64,000 nt of DNA from Nitrospirota bacterium (GCA_963840455.1 CAWIYV010000011.1:32001-96000); one strand, 5' to 3'. Positions 8,690-40,141 are shown, counted from the first letter of the stretch. Numbers and translations are program-made. Notes: generated from the letters alone by a model not told the origin.

Positions 8690-8801
8690 TTGAAGCTCCC
8701 TGCAGAGAACTGCAGGGAATCTTCGATCCTCTGGATAATATATTTAGCCTAATCGCTCGCCAACCCCGCATCAAGCTGCGTGGAATGCGCTCGCTCCTGG
8801 A
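8690..8801 (-). mobile_element. Full-length copy of the ~113-bp IS200/IS605-type non-autonomous element
   Basis: ttgaagctccctgcagagaactgcagggaatcttcgatcctc...aatcgctcgccaaccccgcatcaagctgcgtggaatgcgctcgctcctgga followed by ttca. Confidence 0.85.
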
Positions 8802-8881
8802 TTCATCCCGCTCCCGAAATAATAATGTCACCGCTTCATCGTAAGATTTCAAGTTAACGGAATGTCATTGGCATGGATTTT

Positions 8882-8897
8882 AGCAACTAACATGCCA
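8882..8897 (-). promoter_or_regulatory. sigma54 -24/-12 promoter for the c7 cytochrome gene
   Basis: Minus strand reads TGGCAT-GTTAG-TTGCT. Confidence 0.65.
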
Positions 8898-9259
8898 ATC
8901 ATAAGAACTGATATAACAGGGCATTATTCAAGCTCTCTGAATCTAACATTGCTGAATCTGGTGTAATTACCATATTATCTTTGGGAATTCCCCAAACTGA
9001 TAGTTTTTGCTCTTTCGGCTCGGTTTTTTCATGCCCGGAAAAAAAGCATAAGCGAATGTTGGATCGATGCATGTGGGATTCCTTAGAGGAACAGACAACC
9101 GGGAAGTTCATTTCATAATTGTAATCATGAATTTATTGGACCATAATAACGACAAACTGCTTCCTCATGTACTGACGATCTCCTGATCGAGACGTAACTT
9201 TCATCTTGGCAATCTTAGTCAGCAGCCGGAAGCAAGTCCTGCATGCACATGAGGAGACA

Positions 9260-10045
9260 ATGGGTAAGCTTGACGGAAAAGTCGCAATCATAACCGGTGG
9301 AGGGCGAAGCATTGGCAGTGCCATTGCCGAAGGGTTCAGGAACGAAGGCGCCCGCGTTGTTGTGACCGCTGCACGAGAGCGGCAGGAGATCGATGCCTTT
9401 GTTTCCTCGGGCCGCCCGGATCGGGCGCTCGCACTGCTTGCCGATGTGACCGATCCCCGGGCATGCGAGCGCGTGGCGGCTGAAACAATCGCTCGCTTCG
9501 GCAAACTCGACGTGCTCGTGAACAATGCAGGCCGGGGCATGAAATATATCAGTCCGCGTTTCTTTACTGTGCCTACGCGCTTCTGGGAGGCCGACCCCGA
9601 AGCCTGGCGAATGGTGATCGACACGAACGTGAATGGTCCGTTTTATATGGCACGGGCCGCGGTGCTGCATATGAAGCGGGACCATCATCAAGGTGACCAT
9701 GAACTACGAGACCATGAAGCGCAAGGGCGTCTCTCCCTACGGCCCATCAAAGGCCGCGCTCGAGTCAGAGACCATCATCTGGACACAGTACCTTGAGGGT
9801 ACCGGCATCACGGTCAACGAGATCCTTCCCGGCGGAGCGACGGCAACAGGCATGATCCCGGACGGCCTGTCCGAGGAGCTTCGTTCCCGGCTGCTCAATC
9901 CGGAGATCATCGTTCCTCCGACAATCTTCCTGGCCTCCGCCGCAGGCTCACCGGCAGGCGACTTACGGCGACAGAATGGACGCCTCAGAACCCTGACGGC
10001 GTGCCGGCATCGATCGGTATTGGCGGAGAAGTCAACCCGAAGTAG
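9260..10045 (+). pseudogene. SDR-family oxidoreductase with two frameshifts
   Basis: TGGGRSIG and VNNAG in one frame, YGPSK in a second (shift near 9680), C-terminal LTGRRLTATEW in another (shift near 9940). Confidence 0.75.
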
Positions 10046-10304
10046 GGTCACAGAAGATGTTGATAAATGGAAATTGTATTGTCGTTATTTTGTTGACCAT
10101 AAATCTAATTCAGTCGTGTAATACGCAGCGCCATTTTTTTCCTGTATCCGGCGACAGTTGCACCTCCCGGAAACTGCATAATTCATCTCGAATCAACGTC
10201 ATTATGGTTATTTCGCCCATCCATTTCGGAAATTAACCCCTTCTCCCTTCACCCTCAAATCCGCACGTTGCCATAATCCTTTGATATGATAAAAATTGCA
10301 ACAA

Positions 10305-10320
10305 TGGCGACAAAATTGCA
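10305..10320 (+). promoter_or_regulatory. Possible sigma54 promoter upstream of the OmcS-like gene
   Basis: TGGCGA-CAAAA-TTGCA (GG-N10-GC); a second GG-N10-GC lies at 10362-10377. Confidence 0.5.
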
Positions 10321-10372
10321 TTTTTCTAAATTAAATTAGACCACTTTTTAAACTATTTTTTTGGTTTAGCCT

Positions 10373-11635
10373 ATGCAAATAATGAATTTAATCCTTTTTC
10401 TTGTCGCTGCAGTCGCCGTAGTGTTCGCGTTCAGCGGCACGAGCTTCGCGTTCCATTCCGGCGGCGTCGCCGAGTGTACGGGCTGCCACGAGATGCACGG
10501 CGCAACGGGCGCCAACTTTCTGCAGGGCACCGACCAGAGCTCGACCTGCCTGATCTGCCATGGCGAGCCTGGCCAGTCCAGCTACCATGTGTTGACCCCG
10601 GATTCACAGATGCCTGCTGGCGTCGCTCCCCTCAACATGGGCCCCGGCGGCGACTTCGGCTGGCTGAAGAAGGACTACTATTTCGTGATCCGCGGCTCGA
10701 ACAACACCGAGATGGGCCAGACCCATGGCCACAACATCATCGCTGTTGACGAGGGCCTCGTCGCTGACACCGACAACCCGACGGCCCCGGGCGGCACGTT
10801 CCCGGGCGGCCAGCTCTCCTGCGTAGCCTGCCATGACATGCACGGCAAAGCCCGCTACAACTTCGGCGGTACCGGCTATGCTCTGACCGGCCAGGCCATC
10901 TACACCTCCGGTTCCTACGGCGCGCAGCCGACGGCCGTGTCCCATGGCTCCTATGCAACCGGTGTGTACCGCCTGCTTAACGCTGGCAAAACCGTTGACG
11001 GCGTCACCTTCGGAGCACCGCCGGTCGCAGTGGTGAACAGCACCTACAACCGCTCGGAGTTCTTCACCCAGACCCGTACGGCCTACGGCTCCGGCATGGG
11101 CGACTGGTGCGGCACCTGCCATGCTGACATGCATTCGGGAAGCGGAAATAACAGTGGGATTATCAGGCATCCGGTGGACCGACGCCTGACGGGCGGGATT
11201 GCCAGAAATTACAACAATTACACGAAGAGCGGGGACATGACTGGCTCGGCAGCCACTTCCTACCTGTCTCTGGTTCCCTTCGAGGAAGGCGTTACGTACA
11301 GCACGGCGAACATCAACAGCCTCAAAAGCCATGCCCAGACCGATGATTCCTACCTGAACGGACCAATAACGACCGGCAATTCGGCATCGTCGCAAGTGAC
11401 GTGCCTTTCCTGCCACAGGGCCCACGCATCAGGGTTCATGTATATGACCAGATGGCAGAACAAGAGCAATTTCATCATCGCGGACGGCATGTATCCGGGC
11501 AGCGACAACGCCCAGTCAGCGCTCGCCCGCGGACACAGCAGCCAGGAGACCGCAGCCGCCTACTACAATAGGAACGTCACCAAGTTCAGCGGCTTCCAGC
11601 GCTCGCTCTGCAACAAGTGCCATGCGGAAGACTAA
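10373..11635 (+). CDS. omcS: OmcS-family extracellular hexaheme cytochrome c
   Basis: Mature N-terminus FHSGGVAECxGCHxMH, PGGDFGW, GHNI, TAPGG, YNRSE, YLSLVPFEEG, CLSCHRAHASGF, QRSLCNKCHAED; six CxxCH; matches recalled Geobacter OmcS/OmcT sequence; start uncertain. Confidence 0.88.
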   Translation: MQIMNLILFLVAAVAVVFAFSGTSFAFHSGGVAECTGCHEMHGATGANFLQGTDQSSTCLICHGEPGQSSYHVLTPDSQMPAGVAPLNMGPGGDFGWLKKDYYFVIRGSNNTEMGQTHGHNIIAVDEGLVADTDNPTAPGGTFPGGQLSCVACHDMHGKARYNFGGTGYALTGQAIYTSGSYGAQPTAVSHGSYATGVYRLLNAGKTVDGVTFGAPPVAVVNSTYNRSEFFTQTRTAYGSGMGDWCGTCHADMHSGSGNNSGIIRHPVDRRLTGGIARNYNNYTKSGDMTGSAATSYLSLVPFEEGVTYSTANINSLKSHAQTDDSYLNGPITTGNSASSQVTCLSCHRAHASGFMYMTRWQNKSNFIIADGMYPGSDNAQSALARGHSSQETAAAYYNRNVTKFSGFQRSLCNKCHAED

Positions 11636-11668
11636 TCTACACTTAGTTACAGCATGATGTTTATACTT

Positions 11669-11700
11669 AAAAAGGGCTGGAGAAATCCAGCCCTTTTTTT
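11669..11700 (+). terminator. Rho-independent terminator after the omcS-like gene
   Basis: aaaaagggctgga-gaaa-tccagcccttttttt. Confidence 0.85.
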
Positions 11701-11929
11701 AGACAAAAGGTCTCAAAATGAATATTAAGGGAACCTCTCGAATCATTTCTGGTATACACATTTCAAATCGAAATCGTTTCATTCGTACTGCTTTGAACCC
11801 TGTAGAGTCGTAGGTGAAGTGCGTAGAATCTGCGTTCTCTTCACCGCCCCTCCATTCCCCCTTCTCTCCTTGATCTTCCCTGCTGTTGTTTCCGGACGCA
11901 CTGTCCGGGTCAGGAGCCGTATCACGTGC

Positions 11930-12354
11930 GGTCCGCAGGCTGAGGCACGCCCGGCGCATGGGATGGTCCGGGAACAATCGGTAGAGGAGCTTCATGATGT
12001 ACCGCTGGTCCTCGGCCTCTCTGTTGAAGCTCCCTGCAGCAAGCTGCAGGGAATCTTCGATCCTCGAGGTAGTAATAGTGTGTTCTAATCGCCCGCTAAC
12101 CCTCAGCAAGCTGCGGTAAATGCACTCGCTCCTGGATTCAACACCTTGATCAGGACCTTCGATAGGGGCATGCTGTTGAAGTGGCCGAAATGTTCATGGA
12201 GGGACCGGATCACGAGCCAGTGGTGGCCGTCGAGGGCGAGGCCGTCGATGTCCGCGAGAAGGCGCGCAAAACCCTCGGACCAATCTCCGGCATCGACGAG
12301 ATGGCCATTCTCGTCGAGAGGGATGTGCTTCCCCTCGAAGGATACCAATACCAC
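11930..12354 (-). pseudogene. TusE/DsrC-family sulfur carrier gene interrupted by the 113-bp element
   Basis: N-half LDENGHLVDAGDWSE...HWLVI; C-half LLYRLFPDHPMRRAC; removing 12024-12136 joins them in frame; canonical C-terminal Cys tail not seen; 3' end approximate. Confidence 0.75.
12024..12136 (-). mobile_element. Full-length 113-bp IS200/IS605-type non-autonomous element inserted in the tusE-like gene
   Basis: Two subterminal hairpins; on the minus strand follows TGAA and ends in TCAA; no target duplication. Confidence 0.9.
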
Positions 12355-12376
12355 ATGGCGTCCTGACGGTTCAATC

Positions 12377-14275
12377 CTACCGCTTCAGCGCCTCAAGCTC
12401 CTCCCACCGTTTGAACGCCTCGGCAAGCTCCCGTTCCACGTTCTCCAGCCGGGCCGTGGTCGACGCAACCTTATTGCCGCTCTCGCGGTAGAATGCCGGG
12501 TCCGCCATCGTCGCATGGAGCATCTGCTGCTCAGCCTCAAGTTCTTCGAGGCGCTTCGGCAGTTCATCGAGCTCCTTCTGCTCCTTGAAGGAGAGCTTGC
12601 GTGACTTTGCCGATGCTGGTCGTGGCGCATCCTTCTTCTCTTCAACCCTTGCAGGAACAACGGGAGGCTCTTCCTTCAGCCTCTTGCTCTGGCGCAGCCA
12701 GTCATCATAGCCGCCCACGTATTCGTTCACCCTGCCTTCATCCTCGAACACCAGGGTGCTGGTGACCACGTTGTTGATGAACGCGCGGTCGTGGCTCACA
12801 AGCAGCACGGTCCCCGCGTACTCCATCAGAAGCTCCTCGAGAAGGTCCAGCGTCTCAATGTCCAGGTCGTTCGTGGGTTCATCCAGCACCAGCACGTTCG
12901 AGGGCTTCGTAAACAGCTTAGCGAGCAGAAGACGGTTCCGTTCGCCGCCGGACAGCACTTTCACGGGGCTGCGTGCCCGGGCCGGGGCGAAGAGGAAATC
13001 CTGGAGATAGCCGATGATGTGGCGATTCGCGCCATTGATGGTCACATAGTTGCTGCCGTAGGCCACGTTGTCCTGCACGGTCTTCTCGTCGTCGAGCTGG
13101 GCCCGGTGCTGGTCCAGGTAGGCCACTTCGATGTTGGTGCCGAGCCTGATCGTTCCCTCCTGGGGCTTCAAGTCCCCGAGCAGGAGCTTCAGCAGCGTGG
13201 TCTTGCCTGACCCGTTCGGCCCGATGATGCCGATCTTGTCCCCGCGGATGATGGTCGTGGACAGTCCCTGTATGACCGTCCTGCCCGCGTAGCCGAAGCT
13301 CACATCCTTTGCTTCGATCACGAGCTTGCCCGTGCGTTCGGACTCCTGCATCTGGATGTTCGCAGTCCCGATCTTCTCGCGCCGCTCGCTCCTGACCCGG
13401 CGAAGCTCCTTGAGCGCACGCACGCGGCCCTCATTCCGCGTCCGGCGCGCTTTCACTCCCTGGCGGATCCAGACCTCCTCGGCTGCAAGCTTCTTGTCAA
13501 ATTTCGCGTTCTCGACCGACTCGGCGTCCAATGCCGCCTGTTTGAGCTCGAGGTAGGACCGGTAGCTTCCCGGCCAGCTCGTGAGCCTCCCCCGGTCGAG
13601 GTCGATGATCCGCGTGGCAAGCTTCTGAAGCAGCGCCCGGTCATGGGTCACGAACAGGAGGGTCCCGCCGTAGGTAAGCAGGAACTCCTCGAGCCAGGCG
13701 ATGGACACGATGTCGAGATGGTTCGTTGGCTCATCGAGGAGCAACAGGTCCGGCTGGCCGGCCAGCGCCTTCGCGAGCAGCACCCGCCGCTTCAGACCGC
13801 CCGAGAGCTCGGAGAACTCGGTATCTTCGGGAAGCTTCAGCCGCGTCAGGATCTCATCGACCTTCTGCTGCATCTGCCATCCGCCGGCTGCCTCGAACCG
13901 GTGCTGTACGTCCTCGAGCTCTGCCATCAGCTTCTCGCTGTGGTCGTGGCTGAGCCGCCCGCTGATATGGTGATAGTCGGCGAGCAGCCGCCCCTGTTCG
14001 CCGAAGGCGCCCGATACGACGTCGAACACGCTGCCGCGTATGTCGTTCGGCACTTCCTGGGTGAGGAGGGTCGTGCGCAGCCCCTGCTGGAACACGACCA
14101 CGCCTCTGTCGGGCTTCACCTCGCCGGTGATGACCCGCATGATCGTGGACTTGCCGGTCCCGTTGCGGCCGACCAGGCAGACACGCTCGCCCGGCTCGAT
14201 CTGAAGGTCGATGTTCTCGAGCAAAGGCGGACCGCCGAACCCTACACTGATGTTCTGCAGGCTGAACAATGGCAT
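12377..14275 (-). CDS. uup: ABC-F ATPase Uup
   Basis: Two ABC domains (GRNGTGKS, LSGG, DEPTNHLD; GPNGSGKT, DEPTNDLD), WIRQGVKARRTRNEGRVRAL linker, C-terminal RWEELE. Confidence 0.92.
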   Translation of the reverse strand: MPLFSLQNISVGFGGPPLLENIDLQIEPGERVCLVGRNGTGKSTIMRVITGEVKPDRGVVVFQQGLRTTLLTQEVPNDIRGSVFDVVSGAFGEQGRLLADYHHISGRLSHDHSEKLMAELEDVQHRFEAAGGWQMQQKVDEILTRLKLPEDTEFSELSGGLKRRVLLAKALAGQPDLLLLDEPTNHLDIVSIAWLEEFLLTYGGTLLFVTHDRALLQKLATRIIDLDRGRLTSWPGSYRSYLELKQAALDAESVENAKFDKKLAAEEVWIRQGVKARRTRNEGRVRALKELRRVRSERREKIGTANIQMQESERTGKLVIEAKDVSFGYAGRTVIQGLSTTIIRGDKIGIIGPNGSGKTTLLKLLLGDLKPQEGTIRLGTNIEVAYLDQHRAQLDDEKTVQDNVAYGSNYVTINGANRHIIGYLQDFLFAPARARSPVKVLSGGERNRLLLAKLFTKPSNVLVLDEPTNDLDIETLDLLEELLMEYAGTVLLVSHDRAFINNVVTSTLVFEDEGRVNEYVGGYDDWLRQSKRLKEEPPVVPARVEEKKDAPRPASAKSRKLSFKEQKELDELPKRLEELEAEQQMLHATMADPAFYRESGNKVASTTARLENVERELAEAFKRWEELEALKR

Positions 14276-14308
14276 ACGAAATCTCACGAGCACATAGTGA
14301 ATCAAGGA

Positions 14309-14421
14309 TTGAAGCTCCCTGCAGCAAGCTGCAGGGAATCTTCGATCCTCAAGGTAGTTTTAGTTATCCAAATCGCTCGCTAACCCCGTAGCAAGCTACG
14401 GGGAATGCGCTCGCTCCTGAA
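14309..14421 (-). mobile_element. Full-length 113-bp element with perfect hairpins
   Basis: ccctgcagc-aa-gctgcaggg and ccccgtagc-aa-gctacgggg; bounded by ttgaa and followed by ttca. Confidence 0.9.
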
Positions 14422-14989
14422 TTCACGATATTCTCGTCATGCCCTCTCTTTTCTCAGGCTGTAAAATCCATGGCAAACACATTGATGTATCATTTGAAAA
14501 TTTAACTGATATTCCATTTTCAAGCTCTCTGTCCAGCGTCTAATGTCATAGCATCTCCACAACAGTTAAGATCTTTTCTGTGAATAAGTCACAGGACTTT
14601 TTCACAAATTAGCAATAATAAAAGAGCACTATAAACGACAGAAGGGATAATAGCACTTATCAAATTATGTTATGAATTATATAGTTAAGAAACTACTAAT
14701 TTAAGAATTATTTATTAAATAATAAAAAAATATATATTGACTGTCTGTACAAGTGGTGCTATTTAATGATGCACCTATAATACAACGTAAGATGTATGTC
14801 GTTTCTAAATGAATTAACACTAAACTCAACCAGGATATCCCATCTCCGCCTGAGATGTATCGTAGTCCGGTATTACGTTGCTTATTATAATATTTACTTC
14901 GACAATATACCATAACCAAGTCCTGGTGAACTGTTCTTACGATAACTATTAATCCAGTGTATCTTACTGATTCTTCGGGAGGGAGTGCC

Positions 14990-16030: not shown

Positions 16031-16042
16031 GAGGGGCTGAAC

Positions 16043-20461: not shown

Positions 20462-20487
20462 GCCACGATAAGGGCAGGCAATTCTGG

Positions 20488-20530
20488 AATACCGGCCGAA
20501 TGTCCCTGTGATATTCGGCCGGTAGTTTTC
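20488..20530 (+). terminator. Terminator after the large cytochrome
   Basis: taccggccgaat...attcggccggta followed by gtttt. Confidence 0.65.
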
Positions 20531-21405: not shown

Positions 21406-21438
21406 AAAAAGGGGATGATGGTCTGGCCATCATCCCCT
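21406..21438 (-). terminator. Terminator of the ahbD-like gene
   Basis: aggggatgatgg-tctgg-ccatcatcccct preceded by an A run. Confidence 0.65.
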
Positions 21439-22592: not shown

Positions 22593-22673
22593 TTGAAGCA
22601 CCCTGCAGCAAGCTGCAGGGAACATTCGATCCTCACAGGGTGGTATTATTTCTTCTGATCGTTCGTTTCTGGA
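22593..22673 (-). mobile_element. Internally deleted copy of the 113-bp element upstream of ahbD
   Basis: ttgaagcaccctgcagcaagctgcagggaacattcgatcctc...ctgga followed by ttca; one hairpin missing. Confidence 0.8.
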
Positions 22674-22833
22674 TTCAACTTCTTCCACGGGGCCACGGAG
22701 GCACGGAGAAGGACATGATGTGCTTTAGACACGACTCAGCGGCCTGTGGCAGATATTGATCGTCCGGTATATTAACCAATTGCCTTCAATTAGTAAAGGC
22801 CAAATTCAGGCAGAACCGGCCCCGTTTCCGCGC

Positions 22834-28227: not shown

Positions 28228-28319
28228 ATAACCTCCTTATACCGGTTCGACGAAGAAGAAGATCAACCGAAGATGATGCCCTGTCTCCTGTCTCCTGTCT
28301 CCTGTCCTGACCCCCTGCT

Positions 28320-31300
28320 TTATTTCGTGACTCCCAACTCTGCCGCGAGGTCGCCGTACCGGCGCAGGACCCGCGGGTCCTCGGCGACTGCGTCCCTGAA
28401 CACCTTTCTGGCCTCGTCCTTCCTGCCGGCGCGTAAGTGGACCCGGGCAAGGTTCACCATGGTACCCGTGTCACGCGGCTCGGCCTTGAGCGATGCCTCG
28501 TAGGCCTGGCGCGCATCGTCGAGGCGCTCCTGCAGAAGATAGATGTTCCCGATGTTGTTCAGCGCCATGGCGTTCTGCTTGTCCACGGCGAGCAGTTTCT
28601 GGAACTGTTCGAGGGCCTCGGCATACATGCCGTTCTCCCCGTAGAGGATGCCGAGCTGGGCAAGGGCCGTGGCGTCATCCGGCGTCTTCCTGAGCGCAGC
28701 GAGGTAGCCCGCCGAAAGGTTCGTCAGCCGCTGGCGGCCCAGCGTCTCGAGCTCGTCCTTGAACTTCGCCTCGATATCCTCCTGCTTGATCTTGATCTGC
28801 CGCATGTCGGTGGGCGGGAGCGTCACGGGACTGAACTGCTCCCATGCCTTCTGGACCTCGATGATGTCGGTCTTCCCCTTCGCCAGCCAGTCGCGGTATT
28901 CTTCGGCACCTTTCTGCCACGCACGGGTGAAGGTCGAGCCCACCATGGTCATTTCCACCGGCACCCAGACCGTTCCCCGGTGGATGATGAGCAGGGAGTC
29001 GGGGAAGCCCAGGGACTGCTTGTCCGCTTCCGCCAAGCCGGTGTTGAACATGATGAACACATGCCCCGGCACGTCCACCAGCGCGGTGCCGATGCCGATG
29101 TTCTCGAGCGCGGCCAGGAACAGGATCGAGAGGTCGTCGCAGTCGCCGCTCTTTCGCGCCAGCGTGTCGCGGGGGTACTGGACATAGTCCACGGCCCCGG
29201 CTTTCTCAGAGAACTCCTGGAAGGGGCTCGTGGGATCGACGATGTACGACAGGCCGTATACGCCGAGGGCCGCGTAGAGCGTCCTGGCATACACCAGGGA
29301 CGGGTGCAGGTTCGGGTAGGCGTCCACGTAAGGCTGGATCACGCTGCGAGCGAAGTCGGCCACCGGCGGGTCCTTGGGCGTCACGAATGCCCCGATCCTT
29401 ATCTTCTGGTCCCAGGTCATGGCGTGCCGCTCATAGAGCGTGACCGGGAAGCTCCGTTTCACGGTCTTCGCTTCGCCGGCGATGTAGAAGGTCAGGGCGG
29501 CCTCGCTCTGGAGCGGTGTGTTCTCCGTGACCTCGAGGATCCTGTTATTGAATACCGGCTTGATCAGGAGATCCGCTTCCTGCTTCGGGCCGACCTCGAG
29601 CACCGCGATCTCCGTCGGGAAGTCCATGTAGTCCTTGATGGAAAAAGTGAGCATCGCCGCCGGGAAGGGGTTGTCCGTGTTGTTCCTCAGCACGACCTTG
29701 CCCAGGGGGTGGGACTCGTAGTGCTTGTACGCAGACGCGAATATCTCGCGCATTTCGATCCTGACGATCTCCACCGGCGGCGCGGTGAGTGACGCCCGGG
29801 GCGTGGTGGCGAACACCACTTCGCCGGGCGGACTCTCATCGCCTTCCTTGCCCACGGCCGTGACCTGGTAGTAGTACAGCGCCTCGTCAGTAAGCGCCCC
29901 GTCAACGAACAACGGGCGGTCGATCTTGCCGACCTGCTCGAATCCGGTACCGAGCTGCCGCGTCCGGTACACCCGGTAATGGTCCACGAAGGGCTCCAGG
30001 TTCGGTATCCACGAGAGCGTGATCTGCTTCTCCGCCGCGTCGATCCGCATCTTCTTCGGTGAGGTCGGGACGAGCCGCGGCGTGACTGCCGAGACCGTCT
30101 TTGACGGCGCGCTCTCGTTCCCCTCCCTTGCCTGGCCGCTCACCCGGTAGTGGTAGGCCCGGTTGCTCGGAAGCCCGCGGTCCACGAAGAACGGCTCCGC
30201 CGTGGAGGCGAGGAACCTGAACTCGGCGTTCGGCGCGTCGGCACGATAGATCTTGTAGTGCTCCAGGACGCTTTCAGGATTCGGCTTCCAGCTTAGCTGG
30301 ACCTCGTTCATCTTCGGCTGGGCTGCAACATCCGCCGGGACCGACGGTGTCAGCAGGAGCGTGAAGACCTGGACACGGTTGTTGCCGCGGTCTCCCACAT
30401 ACAGCCGCGTACCGCCCTCCAGGGCGAGCCCCGCGGGCGACCGGAACTCGCCGGGGCCCTTCCCTTCATTTCCGAACTTGCGCAGGAACTTGCCTTCCCG
30501 GTCAAAGACCTGGACACGGGCGTTGCCCCCGTCAAGGACGTAGACCTCTCCATCAGGCGAGAGCACGATGCCTTCCGGGTCCTTGAACTCCCCGTCCAGC
30601 CTGCCCGCCTTCCCCGCCTCCCACTGGAGCGCGCCGGAATGGTCGTACTTGGCGATGCGGTTGTTCCCGCGGTCGACGACGTAGATGTTCTCGCTCCCGT
30701 CCACGGCGAGCGCCACCGGCTCGGCGAATTGCCCCTTCTGGCCGCCCGGTCTGCCAAAGGCGCCGAGGAAGAGGCCCTTGGCGCTGAAGACCTGGACCCG
30801 CCGGTTCCCGGTATCGGCGCAAACGATGTTCCCCTTGAGCGTCAGCGCGACAGCGGAAGGCGAGTTGAACTCGCCTTCCTTCGAACCGCTCCTGCCGATC
30901 ACCTGCAGGAGGCTCCCCTCGCGGTTGAACTTCTGTAGCCGGTCGTTGCCCGTGTCGGCGACCCAGAAATTGCCGCTTATGTCCACCGCGATCCCGCGCG
31001 GGTTCTTGAGCATGCCCGGCTCGCTGCCGCGCGCGCCGATCTTCCTGCCGCCGGCAACATTGATTGCGGCAACGGAGTCGCCGGAGATCCCCCAGAGACG
31101 CTTGTCCACCGCGAGGGCGACAACCTCTCCGGGTATTTCCTTGGTGAGCGCAACGGATGCCAACGGAGAGACCGGCCCGAGCGGCTCACCCGCGCCTTTC
31201 TCGCTGGTGAAGACCTGGAGCGTATGCTTGCCGCTGTCCAGGAGGTGGATCCTTGCCTCGCGGTCCACCTTGATTCCCGACGGCTTTATGAACTGTCCCG

Positions 31301-32135
31301 GACCGAGGCCCTCAGAACCCACGGAACCCAGCAGCTTTCCCTGGGGATCGAACTTCTTGATTTTTAGATTTCCGGTGTCGGCGACATAGATGTTTCCATA
31401 GTCGTCAACGGCCAGCCCCCGGGGCCTGTCGAACCCTTCGGCCCCTTTCCCGCTGCTGCCGAAGGACAGGACCTGTTCCCCACGCGCGTCGAAGACGCGC
31501 ACCTTGTTGGCGCCTGCGTCCAGAACCATGATCCTGCCCTGGCTGTCCACGGCCACGTCCACCGGCGACCTCATCGGGTCCTTCTTGTCGGACAAGGTGA
31601 TCTGTCCCAGGAAGATGCCGCCCGTGGTCAGGACCTGTACGCGTTCGTTCCCGGCATCGGCGATGTAGACCAGTCCTCTGGCGATGCTGATGCCGCCCGG
31701 ATCGCTGAACTGCTTCGGCCCCGAGCCGCGGGAGCCGAAGCTCCGGAGGAAGACGCCCTTCCCGTCGAACACCTGGATCCGTCCGTTATCGCCGTCGACA
31801 ACGTACACGCTCCCCTGCTCGTCCAGGGCGATGCCCGACGGGTACTTAAACTGGCCTTCCTGGTCGCCCTTCTTGCCCCAGCTCTGGATGACCTGGCCGG
31901 ACAAGTCGAGGACGACAACTCGGTGCGCGTCGGAGTCGGCGATGTAAATCCGATCGACGGCAAGGGCAAGGGCACGGGGCTCGTTCAGGAGACGCTGGGG
32001 GGCCTTCTTCCCGGCCTCGCCCATTTCGCGCACGAACTCGAACTGCTGGTAGGCGAAGGCTGGAGCAGCGAGGGAGAAGTTGAAGAGGACAAGAAACGAG
32101 ATTGCACAGCCTATACGGGAGCGGTCAATAACCAT
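28320..32135 (-). CDS. Large secreted NHL-repeat + Fn3 + transglutaminase-like + TPR protein
   Basis: Two sets of NHL repeats, two Fn3 domains (LSW...YRVYR...YYYQVTAV), YVQYPRDTL..SGDCDD..PGHVF..PVE, C-terminal TPRs. Confidence 0.85.
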   Translation of the reverse strand: MVIDRSRIGCAISFLVLFNFSLAAPAFAYQQFEFVREMGEAGKKAPQRLLNEPRALALAVDRIYIADSDAHRVVVLDLSGQVIQSWGKKGDQEGQFKYPSGIALDEQGSVYVVDGDNGRIQVFDGKGVFLRSFGSRGSGPKQFSDPGGISIARGLVYIADAGNERVQVLTTGGIFLGQITLSDKKDPMRSPVDVAVDSQGRIMVLDAGANKVRVFDARGEQVLSFGSSGKGAEGFDRPRGLAVDDYGNIYVADTGNLKIKKFDPQGKLLGSVGSEGLGPGQFIKPSGIKVDREARIHLLDSGKHTLQVFTSEKGAGEPLGPVSPLASVALTKEIPGEVVALAVDKRLWGISGDSVAAINVAGGRKIGARGSEPGMLKNPRGIAVDISGNFWVADTGNDRLQKFNREGSLLQVIGRSGSKEGEFNSPSAVALTLKGNIVCADTGNRRVQVFSAKGLFLGAFGRPGGQKGQFAEPVALAVDGSENIYVVDRGNNRIAKYDHSGALQWEAGKAGRLDGEFKDPEGIVLSPDGEVYVLDGGNARVQVFDREGKFLRKFGNEGKGPGEFRSPAGLALEGGTRLYVGDRGNNRVQVFTLLLTPSVPADVAAQPKMNEVQLSWKPNPESVLEHYKIYRADAPNAEFRFLASTAEPFFVDRGLPSNRAYHYRVSGQAREGNESAPSKTVSAVTPRLVPTSPKKMRIDAAEKQITLSWIPNLEPFVDHYRVYRTRQLGTGFEQVGKIDRPLFVDGALTDEALYYYQVTAVGKEGDESPPGEVVFATTPRASLTAPPVEIVRIEMREIFASAYKHYESHPLGKVVLRNNTDNPFPAAMLTFSIKDYMDFPTEIAVLEVGPKQEADLLIKPVFNNRILEVTENTPLQSEAALTFYIAGEAKTVKRSFPVTLYERHAMTWDQKIRIGAFVTPKDPPVADFARSVIQPYVDAYPNLHPSLVYARTLYAALGVYGLSYIVDPTSPFQEFSEKAGAVDYVQYPRDTLARKSGDCDDLSILFLAALENIGIGTALVDVPGHVFIMFNTGLAEADKQSLGFPDSLLIIHRGTVWVPVEMTMVGSTFTRAWQKGAEEYRDWLAKGKTDIIEVQKAWEQFSPVTLPPTDMRQIKIKQEDIEAKFKDELETLGRQRLTNLSAGYLAALRKTPDDATALAQLGILYGENGMYAEALEQFQKLLAVDKQNAMALNNIGNIYLLQERLDDARQAYEASLKAEPRDTGTMVNLARVHLRAGRKDEARKVFRDAVAEDPRVLRRYGDLAAELGVTK

Positions 32136-32380
32136 GGAACCCTCCAGGCATGATCGGCGTTGTTCGGCATGGCAGACCTCTGAACCGGCGCTTATCGGAT
32201 GATCCTATTTGCGGATGAAGGAAGCAGCGAACGGCCTACGGTCCTATCATGGTGACTTCTACGGCTATAGTATAGCACAATGCAGTCGTAAAACAAAATA
32301 GAAAAGTTATACCCAATAATTATTGCTATACCGTCGGAATCCCCTTGTTCGCGTCCGTACGGACTGATCCGGTTATTCAT

Positions 32381-32409
32381 TTGACATTCAGTCCTTAATT
32401 AGGTATTTT
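32381..32409 (+). promoter_or_regulatory. sigma70-type promoter
   Basis: TTGACA-17 nt-TATTTT. Confidence 0.55.
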
Positions 32410-32432
32410 TTAGTGGATTATTCATTTACCTC

Positions 32433-34335: not shown

Positions 34336-34337
34336 CC

Positions 34338-34988
34338 ATGCGAAACACCTTTTTCCTCACCATCCTTATCCTGGCGCTCCCCGCAGCTGCACTTGCCGCG
34401 TCACCATCCGTCGACCGGCCGCACTGGTCCCTTGAGGTTAAGGGCGGGTACTTCTATCCGGACATCGATAACTGGAAGAACTACTATGGTGACGACAAGA
34501 CCTGGCACTACGCGGGATCACTGGCCTACAAACTGGTCAGGCAGGTGGATGTCGGGGTCGAGGCGGGATACATCAAGGACCGTGGCCAGGGGAAAGGTGC
34601 TATCAGCGGTGTGATCGCCGGGAACGTGACCTACGAGCTTGCGCCGCTCAATGTGTTCGTCCTGTTCCGAGGAAAGTTCAGCGAGACACAATGGCTCGTC
34701 CCCTACGCAGGCGGCGGGTGGACGAGGATGTTCTATAAGGAGAAGATCGAGGCCCAGAGCACGGTGAGAGGTCATGCCGACGGATACCACGGCCGTGCGG
34801 GACTGCAGTTCCTCCTTGACGATGCCGACGGCACCGCCTCCCGGAACCTATACACCGATTACAGCATATACCATACGTACTTCTTCCTCGAAACCCAGTA
34901 CAGCCGCGTGATGATAAACGACCTCACCGGCACATCCGTCAACCTCGGAGGGACCAGCTACCTCGTGGGTCTTCTGTTCGAGTTCTAG
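34338..34988 (+). CDS. Outer-membrane beta-barrel protein (MXAN_2562-like)
   Basis: Signal peptide, QWLVPYAGGG, GLQFLLD, amphipathic strands, C-terminal LLFEF. Confidence 0.75.
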   Translation: MRNTFFLTILILALPAAALAASPSVDRPHWSLEVKGGYFYPDIDNWKNYYGDDKTWHYAGSLAYKLVRQVDVGVEAGYIKDRGQGKGAISGVIAGNVTYELAPLNVFVLFRGKFSETQWLVPYAGGGWTRMFYKEKIEAQSTVRGHADGYHGRAGLQFLLDDADGTASRNLYTDYSIYHTYFFLETQYSRVMINDLTGTSVNLGGTSYLVGLLFEF

Positions 34989-35120
34989 GAACACTGCGGA
35001 TACGTCAAAGATACGGCAGCAAGTAAATCACCAACGAAGAACACCTTATGAGATTAATCCTTTTTCCCGTTGGGTTGCTCTTATTTCCTTGCCCTCCCTG
35101 TTGACCCTCAGGCTCAACAG

Positions 35121-35210
35121 GCATACTGCGTCAAGTGTCATGGAAAATTGGTACAAGGCAAGCACGTCCATGGTGTCATGGAATCTCCCACCGGATGCAT
35201 TGTCGGCCAT
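35121..35210 (+). pseudogene. Remnant of a multiheme cytochrome c gene
   Basis: YCVKCHGKLVQGKHVHG...GCIVGH; second CxxCH degenerate, no intact start. Confidence 0.45.
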
Positions 35211-35309
35211 CTTCGCGTATCAGCTCATCCTATTGGATGCTCAAATAATAAAAGCCGCGAAATGATCCCTTCACGGCTTATGCTTTTCCGTTGAACCGTC
35301 CGGTGTGGG

Positions 35310-35978
35310 TTACCCGACCACCTGCCCGTCACGGATCTCGATGGTCCTTCCCGCCCGCTTCGCATTGTCCTTGTTGTGCGTCACCATCACGATGGTATGG
35401 CCTTCCCTGTGCAGGTCCTGCAGCATGTCGAGGACATGGTCGCCGGTCCTGGTATCGAGGTTGCCCGTGGGTTCGTCGGCGAGGATCACCGGGGGCTTGT
35501 TCACGATGGCCCGGGCGATGGCGACCCGCTCCTGCTCGCCGCCCGAGAGCTGGGACGGCAGACGGTGCGCCTTGGCGTCGAGCCCCACCTTCCGGAGCGC
35601 TTCCTGCGCTGCGTCCTTCGCCGTTCCGTTCATCCCCGGCTGCACCGTGAGCGGCAGCATGACATTCTCGACAGCAGTGAGGTACGGGATCAGGTAGAAG
35701 GATTGGAACACGAAGCCCAGGTACTCTCGCCGGAAGTCCGAGAGCTTGTTCGGACCCAGAGCGCCCAGGTCGATCCCATCCACTGAGACGACGCCTGAAG
35801 TCGGATGGCTCAGGCCCCCCACGAGGGACAGGAGCGTGCTCTTCCCGGAGCCCGACGGCCCCATGACGGCGACGAACTCGCCGCTCTCAATGCCGAGCGA
35901 TACGCCCCGAACAGCAGGATACTCTTCCTCGCCGGCATGGAATGCCTTGGTCACGTTCTGGAGATCTATGAATGCCAT
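35310..35978 (-). CDS. ABC ATPase, LolD/MacB family
   Basis: [39 protein letters not shown]. Confidence 0.92.
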
Positions 35979-36139
35979 GTCTTCTCCTACTTCTTAAATA
36001 CGTTAGTCCGTGCTTTCACCGCAGAGCACGCGGAGAACGCAGAGAACTTCAAATATTCCTTGCTTCAAACTAATACATCAAAGACTCTACCTTCCTGTTT
36101 TCCTCAGCGACCTCTGCGATCTCTGCGGTAAAAAGTTGT

Positions 36140-37303
36140 TTACAATGTTCTTAAGGCCTCGATCGGGTCCAGCCGTCCGGCGCGCACCGCCGGATAGATG
36201 CTTGCCGCGAGCCCCACGATGACCGATGCGATGACCGCGCCCACGGCCATGGCCGGGTCAAAGACGAACTTCAGGTTATAGGCGCTCATGAGGTACGGCG
36301 CGATGAGACGCGGACTGAGCGTGCCGACCGCGTACCCCGATATCCCGGCAAGCAGGCTCACAAAGAACGCCTCGATCAGCAGCACCTGGATGATGTGGCC
36401 GGTCCGGAAGCCGATGGCCCGAAACAAGCCGATCTCCTGCACCCGCTCCTTCACCGACGCCGTCATGGCAAAGAAGATGATCATGCCCGCCACGATCAGC
36501 AGCAGCAGGGAGATGCCGAGCGAGAAGCGATGGAAGTAGTGCATTGCCTGCATCTTGAGCTCCACTGTCTCCTTCACCGCCACGGCCCGCGCCCCGGGGA
36601 GCACGCTGTTCACCTGCGCGACCATGTCCTCGATGGGGCACCCGCTGCAGAGGGCCGCAAGCTCGATGAGGCTGACCGCGTTCCCCTTCTTGAACTGCGC
36701 CTGGACCGTCTTCAGGTCGGCAAAGATCAGCGCATCGTCCTGGGACCCGGTGTTATCCAGCACGCCGGACACGCGGAACGTCCCTCCTCCGAGGATCACC
36801 GTGTCTCCGGGCGCAAGGCCCAGTTTCGCGGCAGCGTCCTTCCCGGCGAGCACCCCGGAAGGGCCGTCGGGCTTCATGCCCGCAGCAACGCGCCACCACT
36901 TCTTCAGTTTGAACTCCGCAGGCAGCTCCGCGCCCGCCACCATCACCTTGGTCCCCTTCACCTCGGTGACGACCAGGAGCTTCGGCGCCACGGTGCTGAT
37001 GTTCTCGTGGTTCTTGATGGTCTTGATCTTCCGGGCGTCCTCCAGGGTCAGCGACCGGCCGCCGGTGTTGATGGCCGAAACGGTCATCCCGCCGTAGGAC
37101 AGCGGCAGGTCCTCCGTGGCCGGGAGCACCAGGATGTTCGCGCCGAACTCGTCGAGCGTGTGCATCACCTCGCGGTTCATGGCGTCACCCACCGAAGTGA
37201 GTGCGACGGCGGCGGCGATCCCCAGGGCCAGGCCCGAGACCAGGAAGAAGGTCCGCCCCTTCTTCCGGCGCAGATTGTTGACGGCGATATCGATGAGTTT
37301 CAT
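36140..37303 (-). CDS. ABC permease, FtsX/MacB family
   Basis: NNLRRKKGRT, ERVQEIGLFRAIG, YPAVRAGRLDPIEAL; periplasmic ALCSGCP. Confidence 0.88.
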   Translation of the reverse strand: MKLIDIAVNNLRRKKGRTFFLVSGLALGIAAAVALTSVGDAMNREVMHTLDEFGANILVLPATEDLPLSYGGMTVSAINTGGRSLTLEDARKIKTIKNHENISTVAPKLLVVTEVKGTKVMVAGAELPAEFKLKKWWRVAAGMKPDGPSGVLAGKDAAAKLGLAPGDTVILGGGTFRVSGVLDNTGSQDDALIFADLKTVQAQFKKGNAVSLIELAALCSGCPIEDMVAQVNSVLPGARAVAVKETVELKMQAMHYFHRFSLGISLLLLIVAGMIIFFAMTASVKERVQEIGLFRAIGFRTGHIIQVLLIEAFFVSLLAGISGYAVGTLSPRLIAPYLMSAYNLKFVFDPAMAVGAVIASVIVGLAASIYPAVRAGRLDPIEALRTL

Positions 37304-37346
37304 GTTCTCTTCCTTGCTTGCCGGCTTGTCAGCTTGCAAGCTGTCG

Positions 37347-37970
37347 TTAGAAGTACTTCGCGCCCTCTTCCAGGTCCTTCGCCTTCACGACCAGCGTCTT
37401 CCCGTCCTGGCTGTTCTTGAGCGGGATCGGGCTGCAGCCGCCGGTGATGTGACCCACATCGGTGGACTTGAAGCTCATGCCGCAGTTATTGCAAACCATG
37501 GTCTCGCCGTTCTGCCGGTAGCCAAGCTTGGCATGGTAGCAGCTCGTGCAGGAGTCCAGCGCCACCCGGACCGTCCCGTCGGACGCCCTGAGCGCGAAGA
37601 ACTTGATGTCAATGCCATTTGCGTTGTATACGAAATAGCTCGCCTCGCTCCCCTTGAGCGCGTCCAGGGGAACTTTCACATCGCCGTTCTCGGCCTTAAG
37701 CGCGGTGTACTGCACATTCCTGTTGCCTTCCCGCGACGCCTGACCCGACATAGGCCGGTCCATGGACCGCGCCCGTGAGGTATTGCTGTAGACCAGCCAT
37801 CCCGCCACGACGAGCGTGATCGCGGCGCCGATGATGATGGACGTCTTCGGGCTCTTCCTTTCGCCGGCGAGGACCCTCGCCTTTTTCTCATCATGCATAC
37901 CGGCACCGCAGGCCTTGCAGAACCTCGCTTCACCCTTCAATTCCACGCCACACTTCGTGCAAACCGCCAT
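37347..37970 (-). CDS. DUF2318 (FtrD/FetA-like Cys-motif) membrane protein with N-terminal zinc ribbon
   Basis: CTKC...FCKACG, TM helix, DSCTSCY, GYRQ, VCNNCG, GGCSPIPL. Confidence 0.8.
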   Translation of the reverse strand: MAVCTKCGVELKGEARFCKACGAGMHDEKKARVLAGERKSPKTSIIIGAAITLVVAGWLVYSNTSRARSMDRPMSGQASREGNRNVQYTALKAENGDVKVPLDALKGSEASYFVYNANGIDIKFFALRASDGTVRVALDSCTSCYHAKLGYRQNGETMVCNNCGMSFKSTDVGHITGGCSPIPLKNSQDGKTLVVKAKDLEEGAKYF

Positions 37971-38152
37971 GACTGCCTCCTTGTATTCACAAAAACAAAG
38001 TAAAAATATTTTCAACAATGTGGAAAAAATTCAACGCTGATGAAGATCGGAAAAAATATGACATCGCTGTTACATCTCTCAGGTCTTACGGCGTAAATCA
38101 TAAGTCTTCATATCTTATCCGCGTTCAATTCCACTTCTCTGGATCTGTCTTG

Positions 38153-39088
38153 CTACATCTCCGTGATCGTTCCATTCTGGTATCGGAGCGATTTTGCGAT
38201 CCTGTTGTTCGACATGATATCCACCTGGATGTGGCAGCCGAAATCGGTCACCTTTGTCTCCACGGGCCCGTTGCCATTCTGCTTGCGCCAGTAAGCGAGC
38301 GCAGCGTCGCGCGCCACGGACCCCTGGCCAGACACCTGCTTGCCGCCTGCCTGGGGAGCACATCCCCGCTTCGATGCACCCTTCGCCGGATCACAGCCCT
38401 GTTTCGCGGCGCCCGGTCCGCCTCCGCCGCAGCAGCCGCAGCCCGATGCCGGAAGTTGTTCCGCCAGGGACACCCTCACCGCTGCCCTCGCCGTCGAATC
38501 CTGCAGCCACTGGTTCAGCCGCATATTGGCATCGGCAGGGCCAGAGGCCCCGGCCGTGACCTTCTCGTCAATGAACTTCCGTATGGCAAGGCGCCGCTCC
38601 AGCCCCTTTCGGAATGCGCCCATGCTCCCGTACTGCTCGTTGATTCTGGCCGCAAAGTCATTCTCGTTAAGACCCGAAGCGGCCCGCATGTCCTGGACCG
38701 CGGCCTGCACCTCCTCGCTCGACACCTGCACTCCCGCCTTCCTGGCCTCCTGCAACGCGATCCGCTCGGTGATGAGCTCAGAAAGCGCCGCATATCGCAT
38801 CCGTCCGAGCGTCTCGGCCGGTACACCGGCGCTGTTCCCGTCAGGCCGGACAAGATCGTCCAGTTCGGCCAGCATGATCTCTTCGCCGTTCACCACGGCA
38901 GCCACGCCACTCGGCAGGATGAACTTGTAATACCCGGCGCCTGCCACAACAAGAATGACCGGAAGGAGCAGCAGCGCGTAGAGGTAGGTCCGACGCTTCC
39001 TCCGGGGGACCGCCATCAAGGTGCTGCCGCAGTTCGCGCAGAAGGCGGCGTCGTTGTCGTTCATGGTATTGCACTTCCCGCAGTTCAT
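38153..39088 (-). CDS. Zinc ribbon + TM + SurA N-terminal-like domain + Cys-rich domain protein
   Basis: CGKC...FCANCG, AVVNGEEI, QEARKAGVQVSSEEV, GCGCCGG, DFGCH. Confidence 0.75.
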   Translation of the reverse strand: MNCGKCNTMNDNDAAFCANCGSTLMAVPRRKRRTYLYALLLLPVILVVAGAGYYKFILPSGVAAVVNGEEIMLAELDDLVRPDGNSAGVPAETLGRMRYAALSELITERIALQEARKAGVQVSSEEVQAAVQDMRAASGLNENDFAARINEQYGSMGAFRKGLERRLAIRKFIDEKVTAGASGPADANMRLNQWLQDSTARAAVRVSLAEQLPASGCGCCGGGGPGAAKQGCDPAKGASKRGCAPQAGGKQVSGQGSVARDAALAYWRKQNGNGPVETKVTDFGCHIQVDIMSNNRIAKSLRYQNGTITEM

Positions 39089-39106
39089 GCTTGATACCTC
39101 CTTGAA

Positions 39107-39152
39107 TCCAAGTGCGAGCGCATTCCCCCGCAGCTTGCTGGGGGAGTTTCAA
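39107..39152 (+). mobile_element. Collapsed single-hairpin derivative of the 113-bp element
   Basis: TGAA then tccaagtgcgagcgcatt-cccccgcagcttgctggggg-agtttcaa; both ends kept, middle lost. Confidence 0.75.
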
Positions 39153-39174
39153 TGTCAATGTCGGATAAAGATAA

Positions 39175-39190
39175 AGCAAAACCATTGCCA
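39175..39190 (-). promoter_or_regulatory. sigma54 promoter for the SurA-like/DUF2318/ABC operon
   Basis: Minus strand reads TGGCAA-TGGTT-TTGCT. Confidence 0.6.
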
Positions 39191-39357
39191 TCAGACGGAC
39201 TCTGAAAAATCAACAAGATAGCTGCTTAGGTGTGCTGATTCAATGCCGCGGGTGTGGGATTTGATACAGTGAGTTGATGAGAACGTACAGTATTGATGGA
39301 TTTCTGCGGCGGGGGGAACGCGCTCACCTGCAATATCTTAGGGAAGGAGAAAGGGAG

Positions 39358-39390
39358 AAAAAGGCCGGACAAAAAAATGTCCGGCCTTTC
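39358..39390 (-). terminator. Terminator of the tusA-like gene
   Basis: aaaggccggaca-aaaaaa-tgtccggccttt. Confidence 0.7.
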
Positions 39391-39444
39391 AGAATAGATC
39401 TGCTCCGCATCCGGTCTGAACCGGTGGGACGATACGCACAGGTC

Positions 39445-39693
39445 TTACGGCTTCTTGATGAAGAGCTCCCACATCCCCTTGTCCTCGATCTTTACAGACT
39501 CAAAGGTAAAGCCGCTCTTCTCGCAGTAGCGAGGGATGCTGTCCTCGGCAGATGCCGGGGCATCGCACAGGACCTTCAGGATCTGGCCGCTGCTAAGTTT
39601 CTCGACCGCTTTCTTGGTCAACAGAAGCGGGTAGGGACATACCCTGCCCAGGGTGTCCAGAGTTTGTGCCGGCGTTTCGGTCTTCAGTGACAT
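39445..39693 (-). CDS. TusA-family sulfur carrier
   Basis: LDTLGRVCPYPLLLTKKA; GAGGAGG RBS. Confidence 0.9.
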   Translation of the reverse strand: MSLKTETPAQTLDTLGRVCPYPLLLTKKAVEKLSSGQILKVLCDAPASAEDSIPRYCEKSGFTFESVKIEDKGMWELFIKKP

Positions 39694-40114
39694 TAGCGTT
39701 TCCTCCTCATACGAGTTTCAAATTCAGGCCGTTCGATCTGCCCGTTTGTTCAAGGTCGGAAATTCGATGCTCGCGGTCACAGCGGAAAAATATCCGCGAA
39801 TGACTTCGCGGGATCGATCCTCCGTATAAAGTATAGTACCTTAACAAAAACCTTAGGTCGTGTCAATACTCGTTTTCCTCCTATTAAAAAAACAAATACC
39901 GAAATACCGCAAGCACGGCTGAGCGCCTATTAAAAAGATTCATCGCTTCATAATGAGACTTTATAAGATACTAGACGGTCTCTTCTTGCATTTTATTTTT
40001 TTTTATATTATCGTTCACGCATCCACAACACTCCATTGCACTATGCAACAAAATTGCGGATTATAGAAGACGATAACATTCTATACCCTGCAACTATGTG
40101 ATAGAAGCCCTAAT

Positions 40115-40141
40115 CCCGTAGCTTGCTGCAGAGAGCTTCAA
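40115..40141 (+). mobile_element. Right-end remnant of the 113-bp element
   Basis: cccgtagcttgctgcagagagcttcaa. Confidence 0.6.

Follow-up and report, generated by a model that had tools for sequence, protein, structure and literature searches.

A 64,000-nt stretch of the genome of a Nitrospirota bacterium (GCA_963840455.1, CAWIYV010000011.1:32001-96000; hereafter the window, meaning this whole stretch) carries several copies of a repeat of about 113 nt. We conclude that these repeats are, most probably, gene-less derivatives of an insertion sequence (IS) of the IS200/IS605 type, belonging to the class of palindrome-associated transposable elements (PATEs). The original prediction, made from the window alone, had already assigned the repeat to the IS200/IS605 type, and the target site, the absence of target duplication, the guide tetranucleotides, the hairpins and the strand bias described below all agree with this assignment. 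On this reading, the family joins the PATE class as a new member of unusually high density, at present either orphaned or supplied with its enzyme from elsewhere.

A profile built from the four full copies of the window was searched with nhmmer (E ≤ 1e-3) against the whole genome (G000; 4,029,776 bases). The search, which had been suggested as a check, revealed a high-copy family with 335 matches, corresponding to 0.80% of the genome or one match per 12.0 kb; the density of about one per 9 kb given originally is correct for the window but not genome-wide. Near end-to-end coverage of the model is observed in 216 of the 335 matches, 172 of which are 108–120 nt long. The matches form 269 loci: 224 are single, and 45 are arrays in which 2 to 4 matches stand head to tail. 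The modal length of model matches is 114–117 nt, the window copies measure 111–113 nt, and variants range from 46 to ~160 nt. The repeat was also detected in each of the five congeners and, in a first sample of relatives, in 15 of 31. Of 301 genomes sampled from the phylum, 27 contain it; among these are 19 of the 63 that belong to the same bacterial family, along with isolated genomes from several further families.

Anatomy, boundaries and target of the repeat

The consensus of the 172 copies reads TCCAGGAGCGAGCG-CATT-CCCCGCAGCTTGCTGCGGGG-TTAGCGAGCGATTAG-(variable)-GAGGATCGAA-GATT-CCCTGCAGCTTGCTGCAGGG-AGCT-TCAA. The left palindrome, CCCCGCAGCTTGCTGCGGGG, is located 18 nt from the left end and the right palindrome, CCCTGCAGCTTGCTGCAGGG, 8 nt from the right end, and the two near-terminal hairpins are alike in sequence and have the same orientation. 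This consensus lacks terminal inverted repeats: when TCCAGGAGCG is compared with the right end in reverse complement, TTGAAGCTCC, only scattered bases match. PATEs are described as elements with similar near-terminal palindromes, without terminal inverted repeats and without target duplication (PMC3119063), and all three properties were found in the repeat. Folded as single-stranded DNA, a full copy (that at 14309) is predicted to form the two hairpins at -26.7 kcal/mol (z -4.0), a stability reached by none of 200 shuffled sequences.

Overlap with called open reading frames (ORFs) is 20% or less at 174 of the 269 loci, and 29 loci lie wholly within an ORF. Co-directional, convergent and divergent intergenic regions hold 137, 55 and 47 copies, respectively, compared with 2150, 693 and 691 such regions in the genome, i.e., each class is occupied about as often as its abundance would suggest. 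The upstream gene takes its stop codon from the target's TGA in 13 of 170 copies, versus 217 of 18,198 for TGAA in general.

Both boundaries of the element are sharp. In the four bases preceding TCCAGG at 163 anchored left ends, T is found in 139, G in 132, A in 157 and A in 162, and no base further upstream exceeds 64 of 163. As a tetranucleotide, this left flank is TGAA in 108 of the 163 ends, TAAA in 19 and CGAA in 12; TAAA is the most frequent junction between units inside arrays. The base after CAA at 122 anchored right ends is T in 90, C in 26, A in 3 and G in 3, followed by unconserved sequence. The proposed TGAA target and TCAA end are thus borne out.

The best evidence that TGAA is the target, and not a part of the element, comes from paralogous empty sites in a host repeat of ~200 nt. 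Its intact copies read CCTGAA|TGAATTTCC and GGGCGAA|CGCGCATG, and in the interrupted copies TCC...CAA is found exactly at the bar, with no bases gained or lost. The search for empty sites in relatives, proposed together with the original prediction, yielded three orthologous sites (the site of copy 1730 in G004, G003:C424, and G003:C242), all with the length expected without duplication; the site at G003:C242 reads CGAA, the commonest alternative target. Two exact paralogous and three orthologous empty sites show that no target duplication accompanies insertion, leaving aside an ambiguity of AA that is considered below. Two copies of G000 are missing in G003, where the flanks are 92–94% identical, which indicates past mobility.

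The ~200-nt host repeat is a second repeat family, which begins with TTTTTTGCATATCCCCTTCGCGTCC (G000:C9:196182-196408, C11:233082-233290, and ~20 further copies) and in which two fixed positions receive the 113-nt element. In three different copies, the insert occupies one and the same CGAA site, and the composite itself therefore seems to have been copied.

Guide pairing, related IS200 elements and strand bias

In IS608, the cleavage sites are reported to be read by the tetranucleotide 5' of the hairpin foot and not by the enzyme (PMC3201880, PMC5934647). Target base 1 pairs with guide base 2 and target base 2 with guide base 1 (PMC5934647), and the third base of the cleavage site is described as having no partner (PMC3201880, PMC5934647). 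In our own reading of the IS608 sequences, target base 4 would pair with guide base 4, which is borne out by covariation. The left end of the repeat consists of TGAA, 14 nt, CATT and the hairpin, and the right end of GATT, the hairpin, 4 nt and TCAA. With all 172 copies supplied, 126 left ends could be parsed, 72 of them with both TGAA and CATT, and 86 right ends, 60 of them with GATT, AGCT and TCAA. The guides CAxT and GAxT, which had been predicted for the two ends, are present as CATT and GATT, and the underlying rule was validated on IS200 elements that carry tnpA (see below). As judged from the sequences, the guide rule holds for the repeat, with CATT as the predicted partner of TGAA and GATT as that of TCAA.

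The arrangement closely follows that of IS608 from Helicobacter pylori, where the target is also kept at the left flank and TCAA forms the last four bases of the element (PMC3201880, PMC5934647). Both have a four-base guide 5' of each hairpin foot and insert into the lagging-strand template, but IS608 carries tnpA and tnpB and the repeat neither, the target is TTAC in IS608 and TGAA in the repeat, and the right guide is GAAT in IS608 and GATT in the repeat (PMC3201880, PMC5934647). The cleavage sites of IS608 lie 5' of the left palindrome, at a distance of 19 nt, and 3' of the right palindrome, at a distance of 10 nt (PMC3201880, PMC5934647), whereas in the repeat TGAA and the left hairpin are 18 nt apart (14-nt linker plus guide) and a linker of 4 nt joins the right hairpin to TCAA. 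In addition, the hairpins of the repeat have perfect stems of 8–9 bp, unlike those of IS608.

A closer counterpart is found in G049, a genome of the same bacterial family, which contains an IS200 with an intact 140-aa TnpA in eight copies with identical ends, among twelve Y1 loci examined. The hairpins of this IS200, CCCAGCAGCTTGCTGCTGGG and CCTCGCAGCTTGCTGCGGGG, contain the 12-nt core GCAGCTTGCTGC, which is the core of both repeat hairpins; among the first 59 Y1 loci examined, the core flanks tnpA in the G049 IS200 only. The clade of this IS200 (L004, L118-L197), with loci whose record titles cover Nitrospirota and several other phyla, resembles the repeat in geometry and hairpin form. Its left end has the site, 13–15 nt, the guide and the hairpin; its right end has the guide, the hairpin, 4 nt and the cleavage site; and its hairpins have the form CC..GCAGC-TT-GCTGC..GG. 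In contrast to the repeat, the clade encodes an intact 140-aa TnpA, and it uses the combinations TTAT/AATA and TTAC/AATG (or TCAT/GATA and TCAC/GATG), never the TGAA/CATT and TCAA/GATT of the repeat. Linkers and interiors of the two show no sequence relation.

For the validation, we used 80 relatives of the G049 TnpA from a named genome collection, in 54 of which like hairpins flank tnpA. Stems were parsed by a strict definition, and the left and right hairpins with the greatest resemblance to each other were chosen. All three predicted pairs were present at the 4-nt linker in 17 of 25 distinct right ends, compared with 0 of 25 at linkers of 0–3 nt and 3 of 25 at 5 nt. Permutation of guides and sites gave a mean of 6.7, and a value of 17 was reached in none of 5000 permutations. 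The eight non-passing right ends are partly due to stems extended by a chance pair in parsing; in a looser first parse, where stems were extended through a mismatch, 14 of 36 right ends passed. The guide–site pairs on the right side are AATG-TTAC, GATG-TCAC, AAAG-TTAC, GAAG-TCAC, and GAAC-TCAG, and CAAG-TGAC was seen in the looser first parse. On the left side, AATA-TTAT and GATA-TCAT are found, again with 13–15 nt between site and guide.

G049 also harbors a gene-less sister family of 128 nt with the same hairpin type (33 matches; L198-L227, locus centers). The right end of this family reads GATA-hairpin-AGGT-TCAT and follows the guide rule in 10 of 15 parsed cases. Comparison of GATA...TCAT with GATT...TCAA of the window family shows that both sides have changed at position 4. 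A subfamily of the sister family ends in TATT-GATT.

The orientation of the copies follows replication, the direction of which was taken from GC skew alone, with contigs showing long runs of one sign. At 184 of 269 loci, the G-rich strand is the one that carries the top strand of the element (odds ratio 4.6, p 2.8e-9). The excess is present in every class of neighboring-gene orientation, with counts of 61 of 87 where both are on the G-rich strand, 30 of 50 where both are on the other strand, and 35 of 49 and 35 of 53 in mixed surroundings. Since 2160 of 3548 roughly called genes are on the G-rich strand, this strand fits the leading strand. Synthesis of the lagging strand uses the G-rich strand as its template, and the orientation bias corresponds to this template. 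Integration into the template of the lagging strand is reported for IS608, ISDra2, and other members of the family (PMC5027513).

In the mechanism that we propose, a dimer of a Y1 (HUH) transposase would bind both near-terminal hairpins of the top strand while replication exposes this strand in single-stranded form at the fork. At the left foot, CATT would pair with the flanking TGAA, located 14 nt upstream; at the right foot, GATT would pair with TCAA of the element itself, located 4 nt downstream. Through cleavage 3' of both tetranucleotides, the element would exit as a single-stranded circle, with the donor resealed, and the circle would then be pasted 3' of another TGAA or, less often, CGAA. 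The likeliest source of the transposase would be an IS200 from the clade with the common hairpin core, acting in trans in the past or from outside.

Search for the transposase and alternative explanations

Y1_Tnp was searched in the genome itself (100% complete by marker genes, 14 contigs), 61 genomes of the family, the five congeners, and five repeat-bearing genomes of other families. The outcome, together with several properties of the copies, speaks against an IS200/IS605-type origin. G000 has three Y1_Tnp matches, all with stop codons and none adjoining a copy, and no match to the TnpB zinc ribbon. Neither the left nor the right end of the repeat is present in any of the 75 Y1 loci of G000 and its relatives or of the 80 IS200 loci taken from the named collection; the repeat profile gave hairpin-length matches only in these 155 loci, with E 0.016 or weaker. 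Pairing of left and right ends in G000 gave no pair with a transposase inside: 267 of 283 left-to-right pairs are within 200 nt, 5 are 201–3000 nt apart, and the two largest of these five (1.4 and 2.3 kb) enclose ordinary genes. An intact IS200 of the matching clade was not seen in the repeat-richest genomes (G000-G005, G016, G018, G041), among them the six genomes of the window's genus. Regarding the copies, median identity to the consensus is 87.5%, and only 19 of 172 reach at least 95%. Compensated stem changes exceed expectation modestly (24 vs 13.5 and 11 vs 5.0). In the sister family, the left end (TTAA, 4-nt linker, CAAT) obeys the rule in 2 of 14 cases, and we therefore take its boundary to be misjudged or its left geometry to be different. 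Finally, a 2-bp duplication of AA would look the same as no duplication, because target and element both end in AA, and all three orthologous comparisons show, directly 3' of the insertion point, one base in the filled site and another in the empty one.

Of the three matches in G000, one is an IS200-type element, L001 (G000:C10:392228-395587, ~1440-2060), which has one in-frame TAG in tnpA and lies just downstream of a tRNA gene; the hairpin at its end, CCCCCGGC...GCCGGGGG, is unlike that of the repeat, and an intact relative is present in G004 (L023). The second match is a truncated long Y1, and the third is below threshold. The short IS200-type genes of G000 (broken) and G004 (the sole intact one among the congeners) thus have a different end hairpin, and the remaining Y1 matches of the congeners are mostly long proteins with a weak DnaA-C-like tail. 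These long Y1 proteins (L025-L059, L243-L257; relatives) have ~290–345 aa, up to 17 copies per genome, and sometimes two or three adjacent genes. Viral contigs gave 0 matches to a degenerate right-end pattern. In metagenome contigs, a CATT-guided hairpin followed by the post-hairpin box of the IS200 clade was found in 10 stretches, none beside a Y1 gene; nine of them look like chance and one is another gene-less relative.

The check for a Y1 gene with the same ends, which the original prediction had called for, thus had a divided outcome: no such gene was found in the genome, the five congeners or the other Y1 loci, but an IS200 clade in the same bacterial family shares the hairpin core and spacing. 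For this reason, the predicted mobilization in trans is something that we infer, and the lack of a cognate Y1 leads us to file the repeat as a non-autonomous derivative and not as a member of an autonomous family. Judging by the shared sequence features, the hairpin-sharing IS200 clade would be the best-supported agent of trans-mobilization. The enzyme may have been lost from the genus, may be absent from the fragmented assemblies of the relatives, or may come from outside.

The numerous long Y1 genes suggest another explanation, in which the repeat is a population resembling repetitive extragenic palindromes (REPs) or bacterial interspersed mosaic elements (BIMEs), processed in trans by a domesticated long Y1 protein with a DnaA-C-like helix-turn-helix. 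Like the repeat, REPs and BIMEs are intergenic hairpins in high copy number, and their processing is attributed to a Y1 HUH enzyme able to read the tetranucleotide at the hairpin foot. REPs are single palindromes of 20–40 nt, often in inverted pairs, grouped around a single-copy gene for a REP-associated tyrosine transposase (RAYT) in enterobacteria and pseudomonads. In agreement with such a system, G005 and G004 have 17 and 12 long Y1 matches, respectively, and G000 has a truncated long Y1 beside its intergenic, high-copy, hairpin-based repeat. One of the long proteins scores 58 bits with Y1_Tnp and 26.5 bits with Bac_DnaA_C, under the Pfam cut-off of 31.5, and its best NCBIfam match is the REP-associated tyrosine transposase (65.8 bits vs a cut-off of 80). 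However, G000, in which the copies are most numerous, lacks an intact long Y1, and neither the repeat nor its 12-nt core is found within 1.5 kb in any of the long Y1 loci examined, although RAYT genes are reported to be flanked by their REPs (PMC3333891, PMC8266576). No Y1 (RAYT) gene flanked by the repeat was found among the Y1 loci examined, the G049 IS200 being the exception for the core. Furthermore, the repeat is not a single REP palindrome but a two-ended, oriented unit with two different ends, distinct guides, a flank-borne target, IS200 spacing, and no Y1 gene alongside. We regard a REP/BIME-like origin as distinctly unlikely.

The AA at both boundaries would also fit an ordinary miniature inverted-repeat transposable element (MITE), moved by a DDE transposase that duplicates AA, in which case the element would read TCC...TTC. 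AA flanks every well-preserved copy (last A in 162 of 163 left and 119 of 122 right ends), and because it stands on both sides, empty sites cannot separate a DDE-type MITE from an IS200 element. The discrimination comes from other features: terminal inverted repeats are absent, no duplication is seen besides the ambiguous AA, and the T-G before the left AA and the T-C before the right AA are what the guides at the hairpin feet predict. A DDE-type MITE would, moreover, leave the strand bias and the spacing and hairpin core shared with IS200 unaccounted for, and we consider it exceedingly improbable.

The excess of compensated stem changes, together with two stable hairpins and the 174 loci with little ORF overlap, could be expected of a structured non-coding RNA or of regulatory DNA (a terminator, an mRNA stabilizer or a protein-binding site) whose mobility is secondary. 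This excess is modest, however, and the stems decay mostly by uncompensated mismatches. The intergenic classes are occupied as they occur, the orientation tracks replication and not the neighboring genes, and 29 loci are fully in an ORF. Orthologous copies lose a whole hairpin or gain an IS, and a search of the whole window with Rfam at gathering thresholds matched no family. A primarily regulatory or RNA function is therefore very improbable in our view.

Copies in the window, variants and arrays

Each of the seven places at which the original prediction had located copies or remnants holds a member of the family (Table 1). The designation as a remnant is correct for the solo hairpin at 40115, but the elements at 22593 and 39107 are complete deletion variants. 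Full-length similarity among the copies far exceeds chance, while counts of short motifs are weak evidence (a 14-mer with up to 3 mismatches, 20 matches vs 11.9 expected; a 10-mer with up to 1 mismatch, 11 vs 8.0).

Table 1. Members of the repeat family in the window, with positions counted from its first nucleotide
Feature	Position	Strand	Length, target and match
Full copy	1730..1840	+	111 nt, right hairpin decayed; nhmmer E 1.5e-31
Full copy	8690..8801	-	112 nt; target TGAA at 8802-8805; nhmmer E 4.7e-36
Full copy	12024..12136	-	113 nt; target TGAA at 12137-12140; nhmmer E 7.5e-33
Full copy near family consensus	14309..14421	-	113 nt; target TGAA at 14422-14425; nhmmer E 2.3e-36
Complete short variant without left hairpin	22593..22673	-	81 nt; target TGAA at 22674-22677
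One-hairpin mini element, complete	39107..39152	+	46 nt; target TGAA at 39103-39106
Solo right-end hairpin, remnant	40115..40141	+	followed by AGCT-TCAA; without left end

The copy at 1730 is preceded by ATGA, the TGA of which is the stop codon of ORF 1352..1729. Its site is filled in four congeners, with two copies in G003, a copy with a long internal insert in G002 and G005, and a remnant in G001, and is empty in G004. The mini element at 39107 consists of the 14-nt left linker, CATT, one hairpin, AGTT, and TCAA. The hairpin at 40115 was detected solely as an inverted-repeat match, with no nhmmer match at E ≤ 1e-3. We considered whether the left end at 39107 and the right end at 40115 form one 1-kb composite, and rejected this, as an opposite-strand gene lies between them and the element at 39107 is complete. 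The intervening gene (39445-39693, - strand) encodes a small protein of 82 aa with a CPYP motif, presumably TusA/SirA-like.

The ortholog of the 8690 copy in G003, the closest relative, is interrupted by a 1.6-kb insertion (L065; G003:C142:12700-15400, ~735-2348). This block was examined as possible cargo and rejected, being an unrelated DDE-type IS with the transposase in three ORFs and an N-terminus that we take to be IS1182/IS5-like.

Two further repetitive features were observed. Six copies of a 29-nt motif, spaced by multiples of ~141 nt, are found at 30364-31796 of the window, within a 1271-aa ORF (28320..32135, - strand) that probably encodes a repeat-domain protein. Elsewhere in G000, intergenic inverted repeats are built of CGCGAAGG-like 9-nt units (e.g., C7:566433-566679 and C14:381362-381658; 12–19 similar copies).

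The identity values given above indicate that the copies are old and that most are now decaying. Comparison of an orthologous pair, full in G000 and short in G003, shows that the left hairpin was lost between two direct repeats of AGCGAGCG, and the short form at 22593 appears to be the same kind of deletion between AGCGAGCG repeats. By sequence, the one-hairpin mini elements would be fusions of the two hairpins; this fused form closes several arrays elsewhere in the genome. A 158-nt form has an additional hairpin after the first.

Units inside arrays have a second type of right end, GAAGCTCCATGC...AGGGAGCTT(A/C)AA, without GATT and the canonical stem. Another unit follows directly after 54 of 83 right ends of this second type, compared with 4 of 188 canonical ends, and the last unit of the examined arrays is canonical or a one-hairpin mini element. 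G003 has a two-unit array where G000 has a single unit. The arrays thus appear to be composites whose internal right ends would be uncuttable, and their unit number seems to have changed by recombination between units. A more far-reaching scenario, which we consider unlikely, would have a family that is still moving and no fossil, in a genus with no intact IS200 transposase of the matching type, by means of an enzyme encoded away from the ends (one of the abundant long Y1 proteins, or a transposase visiting on transient DNA). The (B)n-A arrays would, in this scenario, be composites in which loss of guide and hairpin from the internal right ends lets several units travel as one.

As gene-less derivatives of an IS200/IS605-type element, the repeats compare best with the PATEs of Haloquadratum walsbyi. 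In that archaeon, deletion from palindrome to palindrome gives a mini element of 52 bp (PMC3119063), similar to the 46-nt element at 39107, and insertions differ between strains even though the IS200-type transposases present are described as pseudogenes (PMC3119063). The two belong to different domains and phyla and have no sequence relation. Haloquadratum has 177–194 PATEs in six families (PMC3119063), while the repeat is one homogeneous family of ~113 nt with 335 matches and, unlike those PATEs, forms head-to-tail arrays from a second type of right end. Furthermore, the Haloquadratum PATEs are linked by sequence to IS605/IS1341-type transposons (PMC3119063), whereas the repeat is linked to the IS200 clade by the hairpin core and spacing alone. 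In a full-text search with coverage outside subscription journals and supplements, no paper containing the sequence strings of the element was found, and nothing related was found on IS200 repeats of Thermodesulfovibrio.

The family is a natural example of the programmable guide–target rule of single-strand transposons: one hairpin scaffold occurs with at least six guide/cleavage combinations in elements that carry tnpA and with two more in the gene-less families. At 0.8% of the genome, the repeat breaks short-read assemblies at many sites, and such a family, when unrecognized, is misread as regulatory RNA or as gene fragments. The wider question, which it shares with the PATEs of Haloquadratum, is how insertions come to differ between strains without an intact cognate transposase.

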